A stretch of 64,000 bases of DNA from an uncultured Alphaproteobacteria bacterium (GTDB lineage: Bacteria > Pseudomonadota > Alphaproteobacteria > Rs-D84), in the NCBI GenBank assembly GCA_951801825.1, contig CATOOF010000002.1, positions 100,441-164,440 of the forward strand. Reading direction: 5' to 3'. Positions 1 through 50,914 of this stretch are shown here, in pieces. Position 1 is the stretch's first letter, and every line of letters starts with the position of its first letter. The notes below the pieces were generated by a model. That model did not search any database. It was not told the DNA's origin and saw nothing but the letters and a program-made list of their open reading frames with translations. Position numbers and translations under genes: made by a program.

Positions 1-32
1 GCGCTTATTTATAGTGATGTTAGAAGCTGTAT

Positions 33-219
33 AAAAAAACCACATGAAGTAAGTTCAGGTGGTTGGAGGCAGAAAACAATACAAGATCGATTGCTCTGCT
101 TATTCAATATATTCGCAGACCTCCAACCAAAGGGTTGGACGTGTTTTACGCCCACGCGGGCGATCTTGTATTATGGAGTTTCTAGCCCCAATTAGTAACA
201 GGATTGAATACCGGTTATG
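33..219 (-). promoter_or_regulatory. Structured leader/attenuator RNA, copy E1B; the gene it controls lies beyond the left window edge
   Basis: Minus strand. TGaTATAAT -10 box at 226-234; HP4 at 122-139; conserved loop at 97-117, 21/21 nt identical to 28148-28168; antiterminator 120-128 pairs with 61-69; long-range pair 161-172/78-89; terminator stem 38-64 with U7 at 33-39. Confidence 0.7.
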
Positions 220-276
220 CGTTCCATTATATCATCGCAGCACGTGATTTCCAGCGAAAATGCCGCAATAAAATAT

Positions 277-442
277 AAAAACCCATCATAGGAAAGACGG
301 GCTGGAGGTTAACACTTTTGCACACTAGGTTGCTCACCGTTTATTTATGTATATCACGGCCCCCAACCCAAAAGGATTGGTCGCCCGCGTGGGCGCCTAG
401 TGAGCGAGGTGTTAAACTCGCATAACGGTCTTTTCCGTTACG
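277..442 (-). promoter_or_regulatory. Structured leader/attenuator RNA, copy E1A (no ORF directly downstream; possible sRNA)
   Basis: HP1 421-442, HP2 404-421, HP3 382-395, HP4 363-380, AU-rich loop hairpin 337-359; long-range pairs 409-415/309-315 and 396-402/323-329; antiterminator 360-369/299-308; terminator 282-301 with U5 at 277-281. Confidence 0.65.
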
Positions 443-23890: not shown

Positions 23891-26767
23891 ATGGCAAATA
23901 TGATAAAAATTCGCGGCGCACGCGAAAATAATCTTAAAAATATTGATTTAGACCTGCCAAAAAACAAACTGGTGGTCTTTACGGGCGTTTCCGGGTCGGG
24001 GAAATCGTCGCTGGCGTTTAATACCATTTACGCAGAGGGCCAGCGCAGATATGTCGAATCCCTGTCTTCGTATGCGCGCCAGTTTTTGGATATGCAAAAA
24101 AAGCCAGATGTCGATTTAATAGAAGGCTTGGCGCCGGCGATATCAATTGAACAGAAAACCACATCAAAAAATCCGCGCTCTACCGTTGGAACGGTTACAG
24201 AAATTTATGATTATTTGCGATTGCTGTGGGCGCGTATCGGTGTGCCGCATTCGCCGGTGACGGGTTTGCCTATTAAGTCACAGTCAATATCTGAAATGGT
24301 TGACTGGACCATGAAAATACCAGCCGGGACCAAGATATTTGTTATGGCGCCGCTGGTTCGTGACCGCAAGGGCGAATATCGCAAGGAAATTGCGTTTCTT
24401 ATAAAGCAGGGCTATAGTCGGGCAATTATTGATGGCGAACTATATGACTTATCCGCGGTGGGGCCTCTGGACAAGAATAAAAAGCATAATATTCTGGTAA
24501 TTGTAGACCGCCTGGTCATGCCATCCGCATCAGATGACACTGAAGAGTTTCGTTCGCGCCTGTATGCCTCGTTTGAGGGGGCGTTGCGTCTGGTTCCGGG
24601 ATCTGTGCTGGTGCGGCGCCTGGATACCGACGAAGACATTTTATATTCTCAAAATTACGCATGTCCGGTCAGTGGTTTTACCGTACCCAAGATAGAACCG
24701 CGCCTGTTTTCGTTTAACGCGCCCGCGGGTGCGTGTCAGTCGTGCGACGGACTGGGGGTACAGCTGAAAATGTCGCCAGATTTGGTAATTCCGGATCCGT
24801 CTAAATCTATTTTGGATGGTGCAATTGCGCCGTGGTCGCGCGGTGGCATGCTTAGCCAGTTTGAGCATCTGCTGAGTGCTTTGCATAAAAAATACAAGAT
24901 TCCGATGACGCGGCCATGGCATGCATTGACCGAGGAGCAAAAAGACCTGATTCTGTACGGCAGCGGGGATGAGCCGATAAAAATAAACTGGAACGGTTTC
25001 GTGTATGAAAAGCCTTATGAGGGCGTTATTCCAAATATTGAACGACGCTGGCGCGAATCGGATTCAGAGGCGATGCGTACCGAATTGGCAAAATATCAGT
25101 CAGAAAAGCCATGCCCGATGTGTCATGGAAAACGTTTGAACATTCAGGCACTGTGCGTAAAAATCAACGGTGCAGACATTATGGATGTATGCGAAATGTC
25201 CGTCGAAGACGCATTGCGCTGGTTTAATGATTTGCCAGGTCATCTGACACAAAAAGAAAATGATATCGGCCGCATTGTTCTGCGCGAAATTACCAGTCGT
25301 CTGCAGTTCTTAAAGAATGTCGGGCTGGGGTATCTGACAATGTCGCGCATGGCCGGAACACTGTCCGGTGGCGAGGCCCAGCGAATACGTCTGGCGTCGC
25401 AGATAGGCAGTGGGTTGTCGGGCGTATTATATGTTTTGGACGAGCCGTCCATCGGTCTGCATCAAAGCGATAACGACAAACTGTTGGAAACGCTGAAAAT
25501 GTTGCGTGACAAGGATAATACGGTAATTGTTGTAGAGCATGACGAGGATGCCATGCGTGCCGCTGATTATCTGGTGGATATCGGGCGTGCGGCGGGTGTC
25601 AACGGCGGACGCGTTGTTGCGTGCGGTACGCCGGCCCAGGTTATTAAAAATCCGGATTCCCTTACGGGGCAATACCTGTCGGGTAAAAAGAAGATAGATG
25701 TGCCGAAAAAACGGCGTACTGGGAACGGCGGTGTGATTTCCGTTCACGGTGCGCGCGGCCATAACCTAAAGAATATCGATGTGGAATTTCCGCTGGGGAA
25801 ATTTATTGCGTTGACGGGTGTGTCCGGGTCCGGAAAATCAACGCTGCTTTTGGGGACGCTGTATCCGGCGCTGATGCGTGCGCTGTATAACTCTAAGATG
25901 GAGACGGCGGCACACGATATTATTCGCGGAATGGAAAACGTGGACAAGGTTGTAGACATAGACCAGTCGCCAATCGGACGTACGCCGCGCAGTAATCCCG
26001 CGACATATACTGGGGTGTTCTCAAACATTCGTGATTTTTTTGCCGGTCTGCCAGAGGCTAAGACGCGCGGATATACATCCGGCCGATTCTCTTTTAACGT
26101 TAAGGGCGGCCGGTGCGAGGCCTGTCAGGGCGACGGCCAGATAAAGATAGAGATGAATTTCCTGGCAGATGTGTATGTAGAGTGTGACAAATGCCATGGC
26201 GCACGCTATAACGAGGAAACGCTGGCGGTAAAGTATAAGGGAAAATCGATTGCAGATGTGCTGAACATGACTGTAGACGAAGCATATCGGTTCTTTATAA
26301 ATGTTCCCCAGATTGCGCGAAAACTGGAGCTACTGAAACGGGTTGGTTTGGATTATATCAAACTGGGGCAGAGTTCGCTGGACCTGTCGGGCGGCGAGGC
26401 CCAACGTATAAAGCTGTCAAAGGAATTGGCGGCGCGTAGCACTGGGCAGACGCTTTATATCCTGGACGAGCCGACAACAGGTCTGCATTTCGAGGATATC
26501 AAGATGCTGTTGTCTGTTCTGCATGAATTGGTAGAGCAGGGAAATACAGTCATTGTAATTGAACATAATCTGGAGGTTATAAAAACCGCAGACTGGATAA
26601 TTGATTTGGGGCCGGCTGGCGGTGCTGGCGGTGGTCGTGTTATTGCCACTGGCACGCCCGAGCAAGTTGCCGCAACAGACGCGTCATCCACGGGACGGTA
26701 TTTGAAAAAGTATCTGCCCGCGCCGCGAACGGTTAAATCAAGAGTTTTAAAAAAGGAGAAAGCATAA
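23891..26767 (+). CDS. uvrA: Excinuclease ABC subunit A
   Basis: Two GxSGSGKS Walker A motifs, two LSGGEAQRI signatures, Zn-finger CxxC pairs. Confidence 0.98.
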
Positions 26768-27282
26768 TGTTTGGTTTTGGAAAAAAGAAAGAAACGGCTA
26801 CAAACGGTGCCATGCCGTCAATTGACGATGCAAAAATCCCCAGCGGGATGAAGGAAACAGCCGCACGTATGATGTCGGGTGAGTTTAACCTGAATGATAT
26901 GCTGGCGCAGTTAAAGCAGATTAAAAAAATTGGTAATTTCAGCGGCCTGCTTAAAATGGTGCCGGGCATGTCCGGGGCGGTGTCTGCAATGAAGGAAAAG
27001 ATAAAGGACGGCAGTGTTGATGCCCAGATAAAAATTTTGGAGGCCATGACGCCCGAAGAGCGCGCCAATCCGGAGAAAATTTTTGCAAATGCAAAAACGC
27101 GTATTGCTGAAACGGCCGGGTGCACCGTGCGTGATGTTGAACATATTATCAAACAGCATGCAAAGATGAAACAGCAGATGGCAATGATTCAGCGCATGGG
27201 CGGAATGGAGGCCGTAATGCAAAAAATGCAGGCGGCCCAGGGTGCTGGTGGTGTTCCTGGTGCGCCGATTGGTGTAAAATAA
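26767..27282 (+). CDS. Stand-alone SRP54/Ffh M-domain-like protein
   Basis: GEFNLNDMLAQLKQIKKIG...MVPGM finger loop, AMTPEERANP, RIAETAG; Met-rich; no NG GTPase domain; coupled to uvrA by a TAATG overlap. Confidence 0.8.
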   Translation: MFGFGKKKETATNGAMPSIDDAKIPSGMKETAARMMSGEFNLNDMLAQLKQIKKIGNFSGLLKMVPGMSGAVSAMKEKIKDGSVDAQIKILEAMTPEERANPEKIFANAKTRIAETAGCTVRDVEHIIKQHAKMKQQMAMIQRMGGMEAVMQKMQAAQGAGGVPGAPIGVK

Positions 27283-27943: not shown

Positions 27944-28014
27944 TGTTCGGCCGCTTTTATAGCGGCCATTTTTTATTTCTTGTTTTATCAACCGGTAATG
28001 TATATAATATCAAA

Positions 28015-28228
28015 TGTCACAAAGTGTTTTTGTGATGGGGTGTGAAGACCTCTGCGTAAGCGTCGGAATATTAAGTCTGTGGTGTTTTGTATACATCGGA
28101 CTTGGCCTTTCGATGACAAGTAATCTCCTGGCCTTGGTCAGGAGGGTTGCGAATATATTGAATAAGCACACGGTTCTTACGATTGTCTTCAACCTCCTGA
28201 CCACCACAAAGCTGGTGGTTTATTCTTT
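28015..28228 (+). promoter_or_regulatory. Structured leader/attenuator RNA, copy E2
   Basis: Promoter TTGTTT (27980), 17 bp, TATAAT (28003); HP1 28017-28035, HP2 28037-28052, HP4 28125-28144, conserved loop 28148-28168; long-range pairs 28043-49/28185-91 and 28055-60/28176-81; antiterminator strand 28190-28202; terminator accacca/tggtggt with T-rich tail. Confidence 0.8.
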
Positions 28229-28253
28229 GAAAAAAAGTGGGGGATTGAGCAAT

Positions 28254-28862
28254 ATGGTAAAAAGATATTTGGTGGCATGCATAATGTTGGGCGGGGTTTT
28301 GCATTGTATACCGGCCGCGGCATTGGTCCAGGGCCAGGCATGCCCCACGACCGGTTTTGGCAGTTGGTATGTATATCAATGCAATTGTGCAAATGATGGG
28401 CGTCACTGGATGTGTAATAACAGCCCAGATTATTTAGAGGTCAACGGGCAAACAACATGTTATATAACCAGGGCTGATGGTGGTGCAGATGATGAAGCGA
28501 CCTGGATTTGCGCCAAAGAGCGTAACGGCAGTCCGTGTACCGTGTGTAAGTGTCCGCAATCAACCGGCTGGGAAGTGTATCCTGGGGATGAAACCAGTGT
28601 TGTAAAATATACGTATAATAATGTAAGTTCTTCCTATTTATGCGATTTTATATCAAGAAAAGAGGAATATGGCTGTAATGTCGGATATTATGAAGATGGG
28701 AGTAATTGGTGTGTTGATTGTCCGTCTTATGGCGGGATTTCCGGGACCAACGAAATTGGAACAACGGCTAAGGCTACATGCTATATCCCGCCCAATGTCA
28801 CTGGTAACGACGGGGCCGGAACATTTACCTATGTGGCGAAATGTAACTGGTCGGGTTCATAA
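28254..28862 (+). CDS. Cys-rich secreted/surface protein
   Basis: Signal peptide MVKRYLVAC..AAA, many Cys, CNVGYY and C-terminal CYIPP...D-AGTFTY--KC-W; start moved from 28014 to ATG 28254, downstream of the terminator. Confidence 0.8.
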   Translation: MVKRYLVACIMLGGVLHCIPAAALVQGQACPTTGFGSWYVYQCNCANDGRHWMCNNSPDYLEVNGQTTCYITRADGGADDEATWICAKERNGSPCTVCKCPQSTGWEVYPGDETSVVKYTYNNVSSSYLCDFISRKEEYGCNVGYYEDGSNWCVDCPSYGGISGTNEIGTTAKATCYIPPNVTGNDGAGTFTYVAKCNWSGS

Positions 28863-28887
28863 AAAAACGCCCAAAGGGGCGTTTTTT

Positions 28888-29316
28888 TTATTTTAATGAT
28901 TCGGCCGCCGTGCGTGCCAGAATGTCACAACGCTCGTTCAGTTCTTCGCCGGCATGGCCCTTTACCCAGACCCAGTGAATTTTTGTTCGTGCCGACGCGG
29001 CGTCCAGTGCCTGCCACAGGTCCTGGTTCTTTACCGGCTTTTTATCCGCCGTGCGCCAGTTGTTGCGTTTCCAATTTTTCAGCCATGACTGCATGCCGTT
29101 TTTTACATACTGGCTGTCTGTGTGAATTTCCACCTCTGCGTGACGGTGTGCCGCCGTCAGTGCACGCAGTACCGCCATTAATTCCATGCGGTTGTTTGTT
29201 GTGTCGTTTTCGCAGCCGCAACGTTCGGCGGTATCTTTTCCGTTGGTTGCCACAAATGCCCAGCCGCCGGGGCCTGGGTTGCCAAGACAGCTGCCGTCGG
29301 TCCATATTTTTAACAT
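28888..29316 (-). CDS. rnhA: Ribonuclease HI
   Basis: IWTDGSCLGNPGPGGW, TTNNRMEL, TDSQY, WVKGHAG---NERCD. Confidence 0.96.
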   Translation of the reverse strand: MLKIWTDGSCLGNPGPGGWAFVATNGKDTAERCGCENDTTNNRMELMAVLRALTAAHRHAEVEIHTDSQYVKNGMQSWLKNWKRNNWRTADKKPVKNQDLWQALDAASARTKIHWVWVKGHAGEELNERCDILARTAAESLK

Positions 29317-39715: not shown

Positions 39716-39739
39716 AAAAATCCCCCAACTGGGGGATTT

Positions 39740-40225
39740 TTACCATGGGCAAATATCTGCATACGTGCCGTTTCCCGATGTGTCGGAAAAGCTGAATCCT
39801 TTTGGTATATAGCATTCTTCCTGCTGGGTGGCGCCTGGGCCAGATGTTGTTCCAGGCGATGTGCATGCGGTGCATCCCGTGCATTGGGTTTTAAGGTTGT
39901 TTAATTTGGCGGTGCCGTAATAGCCCTGCCGACAGCGTGCCGTTATTGTTACAGAGCAATAATTGTTAACGCAGCCCTTGGTGCTGACCTTGTTGCATCC
40001 ATTGCCCATATTGCTAACAGTTTCGCCCGAACATGTTGAAGGGGAGCATTCCATTGGGTTTGGCGGCTCGAATTCGCATGGCGGACAGCATGTTGCGCCG
40101 TAATTCAGGCATTTCGTATTGTCTGTTTCGAGGGTGCACTTTATGCATGTAATCCCCAGTGCCACTGCGTTTTGCGTTAACATAAGGGTTGCGCCGATTG
40201 TGGCGATTGTTATACCGGTTTTCAT
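39740..40225 (-). CDS. Cys-rich secreted/surface protein (paralog of 28254-28862)
   Basis: Signal peptide, CRQGYYG, C-terminal CYIPKG---SD-SGNGTY---CPW; RBS aggag; start ATG 40225. Confidence 0.85.
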   Translation of the reverse strand: MKTGITIATIGATLMLTQNAVALGITCIKCTLETDNTKCLNYGATCCPPCEFEPPNPMECSPSTCSGETVSNMGNGCNKVSTKGCVNNYCSVTITARCRQGYYGTAKLNNLKTQCTGCTACTSPGTTSGPGATQQEECYIPKGFSFSDTSGNGTYADICPW

Positions 40226-40261
40226 TTGTTCTTGTCTCCTGCTCTGTTCTTTCTGCGAACG

Positions 40262-40472
40262 AAAAAACCACCAAAACATTTGGTGGTCAGGAGGTTGAGA
40301 ACAATCCTTAGAATTGTGCTGTTTATTCTATATACTCACAGCCCTCCTGACCCGGGCCAGGAGTTTGTTTATCGTCGTAATACTAAAACGGGCGCACAAC
40401 GGCGCGCCTTAAGATTCTATTCCGACGCTAAGGCAGAGGTTCTCACACCTCATTCGCGGAACACCCGCGAAC
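40262..40472 (-). promoter_or_regulatory. Structured leader/attenuator RNA, copy E3
   Basis: Promoter TTGTAT (40507-02), 17 bp, TATACT (40484-79); HP1 40453-71; HP4 40344-63; loop hairpin 40319-41; long-range pairs 40439-45/40296-302 and 40428-33/40306-11; terminator accaccaaa/tttggtggt + U5. Confidence 0.8.
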
Positions 40473-40543
40473 AAGATAAGTATAGCCTGTATGCGGTAAA
40501 AATACAAACGAAAAAATCCCGCCGTCGCGGGATTGTGATTTGA

Positions 40544-50284: not shown

Positions 50285-50480
50285 GAATCCAATGGGAATT
50301 GGGTTCGGGGTCTTTCAAAACCCATACGATACGGCGTGTGTTGCGTCGTAATCCGATTATGCCTGACCGCAAGGTCGGGTGTCTGTTGTTATATAACAGG
50401 CTTGTCCAAAAGCAACAGGGTCATTTATCGTATGATTTTGAAAACGCCCGACCGCCATTCCTTTGGCGGTTTAATTTTAT
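50285..50480 (+). promoter_or_regulatory. Structured leader/attenuator RNA, copy E4 (divergent sequence, same architecture)
   Basis: Promoter TTTACA (50250), 17 bp, TATAAT (50273); HP1 50285-306; HP4 cctgacc-gcaa-ggtcggg; long-range pairs 50313-20/50436-43 and 50324-31/50426-33; antiterminator 50373-82/50444-53; terminator accgcca/tggcggt + T-rich tail. Confidence 0.7.
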
Positions 50481-50494
50481 CTTGGGAGAATTTT

Positions 50495-50914
50495 ATGAAC
50501 TATGCAAATGTGCCCATAGACACACAGCTGGCTTTTGTTTTGCCTGGGTGGCTAATACTTGGACTATTCTCGTTTTCCGTTGTTGCATGTATCGCTTTTG
50601 CTTGTGCCACCAGAAAATATGTCCGAGAAATAAAAGAAAACTTTCCACGACTTAACATCAAAATAAACGTCATACTGTTTGGGTTGATGTTTTTAGCGTG
50701 GTTTGCGCAAATTGCTACATATGTAGAGCTTGCTGTTCGTGGACATGTAGGAATTGGGTGGTTGCATTTCTTTGCTGCAAAGTATTTTATCGCTAGGTCA
50801 ATCGTATTGAATTATTCCGAGCAAGGCTATATCCACAAAACAATTCTGATTTACGCAATAGTGTATATTATTCTATATGCTTGCGGTTTTATATTGGGAG
50901 GGCTGTTATGGTAA
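50495..50914 (+). CDS. Small membrane protein (AT-rich)
   Basis: 3-4 TM segments; RBS gggag; start moved to ATG 50495 after the E4 terminator. Confidence 0.7.
   Translation: MNYANVPIDTQLAFVLPGWLILGLFSFSVVACIAFACATRKYVREIKENFPRLNIKINVILFGLMFLAWFAQIATYVELAVRGHVGIGWLHFFAAKYFIARSIVLNYSEQGYIHKTILIYAIVYIILYACGFILGGLLW

Follow-up and report, generated by a model that had tools for sequence, protein, structure and literature searches.

Two cysteine-rich genes in terminator-bounded units

The stretch of DNA analysed here (the window) comprises 64,000 nucleotides (nt) of an uncultured alphaproteobacterium and holds two genes, A and B, each of which encodes a small cysteine-rich protein with a signal peptide and lies directly behind a copy of the same structured leader RNA. 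Our analysis suggests that A and B belong to a family of exported, disulfide-rich and fast-diversifying proteins whose genes are mostly gated by this leader, a multi-copy terminator switch resembling the small RNA (sRNA) known as sRNA-Xcc1, and we regard this reading as reasonably probable. The two open reading frames (ORFs) and the terminators that bound their units are located as follows.

28254..28862, + strand: ORF A, from ATG at 28254 to TAA at 28860-28862, 202 amino acids (aa)
Within ORF A, + strand: signal peptide at about residues 1-24; unique cysteine-rich N-terminal part; C-terminal module of the family in the last ~70 aa (~28650-28859)
39740..40225, - strand: ORF B, from ATG at 40225 to TAA at 39740-39742, 161 aa
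Within ORF B, - strand: signal peptide at about residues 1-22; hypervariable residues 23-66; C-terminal module at residues 96-161
27949..27976, + strand: terminator of upstream rlmE, which insulates unit A (intrinsic-terminator scan)
28861..28888, both strands: bidirectional terminator common to ORF A and convergent rnhA
40515..40534, - strand: terminator of upstream rpiB, which insulates unit B
39716..39741, both strands: bidirectional terminator common to ORF B and convergent leuS

Each gene is bracketed by terminator-like hairpins, namely that of the upstream gene, that of its own leader and the bidirectional one behind it, in agreement with an initial annotation of this DNA that had described A and B as single genes insulated by terminators. 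With its own promoter, leader and terminator, each gene would be a self-contained unit, set at variable points among housekeeping genes.

Sec-type signal peptides were read by eye at the start of A (MVKRYLVACIMLGGVLHCIPAAA) and of B (MKTGITIATIGATLMLTQNAVA). Neither protein has a membrane anchor, the C-termini being ...CNWSGS in A and ...CPW in B without a hydrophobic stretch. In the search for sorting domains, no NCBIfam family was matched at an expect value (E) <= 0.1 by A, B, two paralogs or three relatives, and domains of kinds such as the type IX secretion system C-terminal domain (T9SS CTD), PEP-CTERM and LPXTG, sought across NCBIfam and Pfam, gave no match. The surface location named in the initial annotation was a supposition, and its proposal that the C-terminal module acts as a secretion or anchoring signal is unsupported. 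Elsewhere in the genome, at G000 C2:40857-41717 and hence not in the window, lies a gene for a DsbA-like oxidoreductase that is anchored in the membrane and has a CPYC site; no DsbB was detected.

A family defined by its C-terminal module

In a BLASTP comparison of A with B, the alignment is confined to 47 residues at the C-terminus (38% identity, E = 4e-5), and the N-terminal parts do not align. Both proteins contain the C-terminal motif that had been noted at the outset behind unrelated-looking N-terminal regions. A profile of the C-terminal ~70 residues, built with jackhmmer and a hidden Markov model (HMM), matches 17 ORFs in the genome at E = 1e-11 to 1e-29, always with the module at the extreme C-terminus, and because of these matches the resemblance between A and B is far beyond chance. 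The two genes are members of a family of paralogs in which the N-terminal part varies and the C-terminal module is kept, as first proposed. The consensus of the module reads C-x2-G-Y-Y-G ... C-x2-C-P ... G-T-(T/S) ... C-Y-I-P ... D-x2-G-x-(F/Y)-x-(F/Y) ... C-x-Y, and its G-Y-Y, the P behind CxxC and the last cysteine are kept in at least 90% of 60 aligned family sequences. A word-based search among 5.8 billion proteins found no homolog of the N-terminal part of A, and B alone, used as the query against a collection of genome contigs (genome_contigs), found no relative there.

Strong matches to the family are essentially limited to the genus Candidatus Enterousia, with 0-23 copies per species genome, and only two weak matches were found outside it, in another genus of the same order. 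Among 1.84 billion cluster representatives, the family profile has 1,959 matches at E <= 1e-3; almost all of the 150 matches listed are 140-290 aa long with the module terminal, and a few are long multi-repeat proteins.

The multi-repeat relatives P0015, P0022 and P0024 pass the gathering score of the Pfam family PF07699 (Ephrin_rec_like, formerly GCC2_GCC3, related to TNFR-type and furin-like repeats) with 31-34 bits against the required 23.1, and one paralog of A and B reaches 17.8 bits. Because only relatives and not A or B pass this score, the homology of the family to PF07699 is transitive and not direct. The cysteine pattern of PF07699, C-x2-G-x-Y ... C-x2-C-P-x-G, is present in the module, in which 3-4 cysteines are invariant across two family alignments. 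A search of PDB sequences returned only a weak match of the profile to thyroglobulin residues 1474-1530 (E = 0.008). AlphaFold2 models the module of A, using a 60-sequence alignment, with a mean predicted local distance difference test (pLDDT) score of 85; the model of the whole of B is poor (pLDDT 57).

Judged from these patterns, the best explanation is that the module represents a divergent Ephrin_rec_like/TNFR-type cysteine repeat with a hairpin tail (CYIP...D..G..Y...C) behind it. It resembles PF07699 in the C-x2-G-Y-Y...C-x2-C-P...G pattern and in its predicted occurrence in extracellular, disulfide-rich proteins. However, members of the family also carry a conserved tail at the C-terminus, CYIP...D..G.(F/Y).(F/Y)...C.Y, and are small bacterial proteins with a single terminal copy, whereas the literature located for PF07699 describes the domain in eukaryotes only. 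On this reading the module would act as a common scaffold or docking domain, and the variable N-terminal part would contact a partner, host or phage-derived ligand.

Rapid divergence and cassette-like placement

Orthologs of B in metagenome contigs keep the locus, which consists of genes for an M23 peptidase and a bactofilin, rpiB, the leader, the gene itself and convergent leuS. Compared with one syntenic ortholog, B is 63% identical, whereas the flanking RpiB, bactofilin, LeuS and M23 peptidase are 93-96% identical. The rate of nonsynonymous substitution (dN, Nei-Gojobori) is 0.215 for B against 0.02-0.04 for the flanks, which is 6-10 times higher, at a similar rate of synonymous substitution (dS) of ~0.95. 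The divergence is concentrated within the protein, dN being 0.44 at residues 23-66 and 0.09 in the module; among close orthologs the signal peptide is 90-96% and the module 89-98% identical, compared with 46-61% for the N-terminal mature part. In the same ortholog comparison, the 319-nt leader region is 92% identical. Neutral sites at a dS of ~0.95 would fall below 50% identity, which shows strong constraint on the leader.

The gap between rlmE and rnhA that houses A (window 27944-28887, compared with loci L042-L059) is a variable spot and a hotspot for accessory genes. In two species rlmE and rnhA abut, in several others unrelated lipoprotein or membrane-protein genes lie there, and in one species another family gene is found just downstream of rlmE. 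A B-like gene that is less closely related has other neighbours and likewise stands behind a leader.

The leader RNA

The leaders of A and B are ~230-250 nt long, and their terminators end 24-33 nt before the start codon. They are 79% identical across ~270 nt and are the two best of the five copies in the window; the initial annotation had called them the two most similar leaders. Seven copies in the genome are full-length, and many others are shorter. With a covariance model, 45 leader cores are found in the genome, 5 of them in the window. Species of the genus have 0-48 each, the zero coming from a single fragmentary genome, and those of the order's other genera have 0-3. The parts of the copies in the window are listed below.

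28003..28008, + strand: -10 box TATAAT of leader A, aligned with the -10 boxes of other full-length copies; a consensus promoter scan does not list it
28018..28034, + strand: hairpin HP1 of leader A, CACAAAG-UGU-UUUUGUG, from the copy alignment; the stem differs among paralogous copies with the pairing kept
28037..28052, + strand: hairpin HP2 of leader A, GGGGUGUGAAGACCUC, with the address UGAAGAC at 28043-28049, complementary to the junction J2/1
28053..28124, + strand: insertion domain of leader A, present only in the long leader form that precedes cysteine-rich genes
28125..28133, + strand: X strand of leader A, CUCCUGGCC, rival partner of the B strand; the X:B hairpin lets the terminator form
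28136..28202, + strand: sRNA-Xcc1-like three-way junction of leader A, with P1 formed by 28136-28145 and 28193-28202, and P2 at 28170-28186
28151-28165, + strand: conserved loop of the P1a hairpin of leader A, GAAUAUAUUGAAUAA; J2/1 address GUCUUCA at 28185-28191
28199..28229, + strand: terminator of leader A, GACCACC...GGUGGUU with a U-rich tail; its first 4 nt are common with the P1 3' strand
40436..40484, - strand: -10 box TATACT (40484-40479), HP1 (40471-40453) and HP2 (40451-40436) of leader B, with the address UGAGAAC at 40445-40439
40355..40363, - strand: X strand of leader B, CUCCUGGCC
40285..40352, - strand: three-way-junction core of leader B including P1a and its loop, with P1 formed by 40352-40343 and 40294-40285, P2 at 40317-40301, and the J2/1 address GUUCUCA at 40302-40296
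40258..40288, - strand: terminator of leader B, a 10-bp (base pair) stem and U tract
32..381, - strand: two tandem leader cores at the window edge (32-145 and 275-381), whose downstream gene lies outside the window
50355..50477, + strand: fifth leader core of the window, a GGUCGGG/CCCGACC variant, preceding a 139-aa ORF at 50495-50914 (+)

The core is a three-way junction composed of P1, the P1a hairpin with its conserved loop and P2 as the third arm. P1 is GGUCAGGAGG/CCUCCUGACC in the form that precedes cysteine-rich genes, GGUUGGAGG/CCUCCAACC in the form that precedes XRE genes and GGUCGGGG/CCCCGACC in a third form. Across 21 leader copies in this genome, 90% of the cells pair and 14 of the 22 pairs are compensatory, compared with 30-57% pairing in slid controls; for 32 hits that precede family genes of other species, pairing is 89%, with compensatory change at 19 of the 22 pairs. 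The 15-nt loop (GAAUAU....AAUAA) is kept while the stems covary.

Two exclusive folds in front of the terminator

The 5' strand of P1, the B strand, is also able to pair with the upstream strand X, and X covaries with it across at least five sequence classes. The terminator stem begins inside the 3' strand of P1 (GACC/ACCA...), and therefore the full P1 takes away the terminator base. The leader has, in other words, two mutually exclusive helices that are both supported by covariation and one of which removes part of an intrinsic terminator, which is the arrangement of a transcription-attenuating switch. In this respect the initial annotation, which placed an RNA switch before both genes, is supported: the leader has two alternative states and contains a terminator. 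Nested-fold energies place X:B plus the terminator 3-8 kcal/mol below the P1 fold, the value varying with transcript length and leaving the 7-bp tertiary pairing described next uncounted.

This additional pairing joins the loop of HP2 to the junction before the P1 3' strand (J2/1), by UGAAGAC/GUCUUCA in A and UGAGAAC/GUUCUCA in B. Of 38 cognate leaders, 23 have an exact complement of the address at a distance of 30-130 nt upstream, against 28 of 1384 non-cognate pairs, and 16 different 7-mers are in use. A second cognate address site within 110 nt downstream, allowing at most one mismatch, occurs in 35% of cognate against 21% of non-cognate comparisons and is not clearly enriched; the exact downstream matches, two in number, both fall on HP2 of the tandem copy that follows. 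For want of such enrichment, the idea of a further c4-style target at the ribosome-binding site (RBS) was rejected.

No promoter-like site was found between the leader terminator and the start codon at A or B. A separate promoter for the gene was rejected on this ground and because the gap of 24-33 nt is too small, and the genes therefore depend on read-through of the leader terminator. Two further candidates were set aside. A leader-peptide attenuator was rejected since the short ORFs behind the internal GGAGG are not conserved among copies (read by eye), and an attC-like or DNA recombination site was rejected since G-U preserves the pairing in many places and the element always points the same way as the downstream gene.

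In the mechanism that we propose, strand B (GGUCAGGAGG) would pair with the upstream X (CUCCUGGCC) in the OFF fold, allowing the terminator to form. In the ON fold, B would pair with B' (CCUCCUGACC), closing the three-way junction similar to that of sRNA-Xcc1 and c4 and depriving the terminator stem of its base. The copy-specific 7-nt pairing of the HP2 loop with J2/1 would belong to the fold. As the trigger, our preferred guess is that the conserved 15-nt loop is recognised by a factor or ligand common to the copies, in which case the family would be part of a larger regulon. Conservation of the loop across copies seems to fit such a shared signal or factor better than a mutually exclusive choice among genes.

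Genes that carry the leader

In the host genome, 10 of the 17 family genes lie directly behind a leader core, and an eleventh occupies the third position in an operon headed by a leader. Counting the motif genes behind the leader, a check proposed with the initial annotation, thus gives 10-11 of 17, so that leaderless genes are not the majority here. Most leader copies precede other genes, which include ~10 small XRE-type helix-turn-helix (XRE-HTH) proteins, a membrane protein, another cysteine-rich family and unknown small ORFs. The ORF behind the fifth leader of the window (50495-50914, + strand) encodes a predicted membrane protein of 139 aa without a Pfam match, and the leader would therefore also control genes that do not encode secreted cysteine-rich proteins. 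A species of the genus with 22 leader copies lacks the family altogether. With ~45 copies in this genome, most of them before other genes, the leader probably serves the accessory genes of this lineage in general as a control element and is not a family-specific selector.

A 319-aa secreted protein with another cysteine-rich repeat (...C.NDQ.L..G.C....Q..CP.G.Y...) is encoded behind a leader copy at G000 C1:464582-465541, outside the window, and the family HMM does not pick it up.

Two observations concern leaderless genes of the family, all outside the window. A box with the sequence ATGCC(T/G)AAAAAAA recurs upstream of such genes at G000 C1:46028, C2:245293, C2:281615 and C2:305610; 6 of its 8 strict copies in the genome fall within 400 nt upstream of these four genes, and this enrichment suggests a second, different control element for leaderless family genes. 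In addition, an inverted repeat of 202 bp with 98.5% identity, the two arms 24 kb apart (G000 C2:281451-281652 and C2:305744-305945), contains a terminator, a promoter, a 5' untranslated region and the first ~11 codons (MPNKIVGFFSA). It is common to a leaderless family gene and another cysteine-rich secreted gene and could mediate inversion or gene conversion.

Weighing the evidence

Several observations count against the reading of an exported, fast-diversifying family gated mostly by a terminator switch. On the protein side, A and B have no hit in Pfam at E <= 1. Structure prediction of the C-terminal domain, suggested with the initial annotation, succeeded in giving a confident model, but a Foldseek search of the PDB with this model of the module of A gives nothing at E <= 0.001 and finds TRAIL-R2/DR5 only at a template modelling (TM) score of ~0.3. 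Positive selection on B is suggested by the ortholog comparison, but dN/dS is below 1 (0.22 overall) and gives no proof of it. On the side of the RNA, six of the 17 family genes have no leader even with the search speed filters off. The leader precedes 20 of 20 family genes in one other species (G013), but only 3 of 9 in G017, 1 of 4 in G004 and none of 4 in G003; because six genes here and most of those tested in these last three species lack it, the leader is not essential to the family. Tandem arrays of 2-4 leader copies are present elsewhere in the genome (e.g. G000 C2:62008-62629 and C2:82041-82581), some of them without a clear downstream ORF, and suggest that some copies act as free RNAs. 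Finally, that read-through is regulated, and in which direction, we infer from structure alone.

The tandem arrays lead to the alternative that survives best, which we nevertheless consider unlikely: that the leaders are mainly independent sRNA genes of the c4 or sRNA-Xcc1 type, acting antisense in trans (for example in immunity against mobile elements or phages), and that downstream expression is incidental read-through. The likeness to sRNA-Xcc1 (RF02221; an integron- or island-borne sRNA of Xanthomonas and Xylella) extends over the P1/P1a/P2 three-way junction, in which a P1 of 9-10 bp surrounds two hairpins, and includes the RCC behind P1 and the U-rich junction that leads into its 3' strand. 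Nine leader copies align to the whole RF02221 model (positions 1-87) at 28.8-41 bits, below the gathering score of 53; at gathering scores, Rfam finds only tRNAs in the window. Strong leader terminators and the arrays without convincing downstream ORFs are in keeping with sRNA genes. So is the variable address, which resembles the a'/b' specificity loops that Citron and Schuster (1990) reportedly described for phage P1/P7 c4; the a1/b1 and a2/b2 sites of c4 are reportedly treated there and by Hartmann et al. (1995).

Unlike sRNA-Xcc1, however, the core sits here inside a ~170-250-nt 5' leader present in ~45 copies per genome. This leader includes a promoter, a rival strand upstream of the core and a hairpin with the cognate address; its terminator stands 24-33 nt ahead of the gene with no promoter-like site between. 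Orientation and spacing to the downstream gene are conserved in all 20 family loci of G013, and the covarying X:B helix makes sense only for a switch. The C4 antisense RNA of phages P1/P7 (RF01695) is alike in that a variable, copy-specific core sequence pairs with an upstream site in the same transcript, but its model has no match at E <= 1 on 20 leader loci. There is one paired segment here and not two, each address has its cognate target in its own leader with no second site near the RBS, and control seems to act on the terminator and not on translation coupled to Rho. The ACCA or RCC that follows P1 offers only a sequence hint at C4-like processing of a 5' end by RNase P.

A classical riboswitch comes next and is likewise improbable. 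Here a small molecule or ion would bind the junction and the 15-nt loop, stabilise P1 and turn on a partner-contact regulon including the cysteine-rich family. The leader is built like riboswitches and attenuators in having one strand with two exclusive, covarying partners and an intrinsic terminator directly before the gene; the junction and the GAAUAU....AAUAA loop are conserved over covarying stems, and the element is common to many unrelated genes. Yet it differs from them in matching no Rfam family at gathering score and in having no known effector, be it a ligand, a leader peptide, a tRNA or a protein. The downstream genes encode regulators and secreted proteins and not the transporters or enzymes that would hint at a ligand, a GGGG-type leader variant replaces the loop by a different sequence with an extra hairpin, and the known relatives sRNA-Xcc1 and c4 are not ligand sensors.

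Rather doubtful, too, is the interpretation with which A and B were first described, namely a variant surface-antigen repertoire with a C-terminal secretion or anchoring signal, of which one or a few loci at a time are expressed through RNA antitermination without DNA rearrangement. Hypervariable N-terminal parts on a conserved C-terminal module, 0-23 copies per species and single, terminator-insulated genes speak for it, and an address of 7 nt proper to each leader could in principle allow locus-specific control. With the variant-specific surface proteins (VSPs; PF03302) of Giardia and the i-antigens of ciliates, the family has in common cysteine-rich sequences with CXXC and GYY, a large, fast-varying set of paralogs and a conserved C-terminal end. 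However, A and B are bacterial proteins with a Sec signal peptide and have neither a C-terminal transmembrane anchor nor a conserved cytoplasmic tail nor a known sorting domain, and PF03302 has no hit in A or B and only a single sub-threshold relative (15.9 bits against 31.4). The leader moreover fronts ~30 other loci, including those of XRE regulators and membrane proteins, it is plentiful in a species without the family, and 35-40% of family genes here lack it. No mechanism of mutual exclusion is visible, and loop conservation points to a shared input.

Very improbable, finally, is a self-addressed c4-like switch in which terminated leader RNAs would act in trans through the 7-nt address on nascent transcripts of their own or address-sharing loci and thereby make each gene bistable.

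Organism and implications

The host genome, of which the window is a part, measures 897 kb in four contigs. RlmE of the window is 80-94% identical to RlmE of metagenome-assembled genomes labelled Candidatus Enterousia or uncultured Alphaproteobacteria, from gut samples of human, sheep, goat, yak, horse and deer, and the taxonomic label Candidatus Enterousia is confirmed by this comparison. Right behind uvrA, at window positions 26767-27282 (+ strand), lies a stand-alone 171-aa ORF that consists only of the signal-peptide-binding M domain of SRP54 (Pfam SRP_SPB, 85 bits) and may be a split or extra ffh fragment.

Enterousia and the other members of its order, Rs-D84, live uncultured in the gut and are predicted to feed on partner cells; their genomes are smaller than 1 Mb, most biosynthesis is lost, and they are probably obligate symbionts or parasites (PMC12306168). 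The same paper mentions neither the cysteine-rich family nor the leader. No published description of either was found in the literature searched, in which their combination is undescribed, each half being a variation of a known kind.

In a genome of less than 1 Mb, 17 exported, fast-diverging cysteine-rich proteins and ~45 leader copies take up a large share of the coding capacity, and the domain of the family has otherwise been described in eukaryotes. In the leader, the architecture of sRNA-Xcc1 and c4 would be put to a distinct use, namely to switch a terminator in cis, with an internal pairing that is specific to each copy. It would thereby extend the known regulatory RNAs by one class. 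If the self-addressed form of the switch were true, it would amount to phase or antigenic variation of a secreted or surface repertoire by RNA only, with no DNA rearrangement, in a partner-dependent gut bacterium. The members of the family are candidate adhesins or effectors through which the lifestyle of this lineage may be understood.

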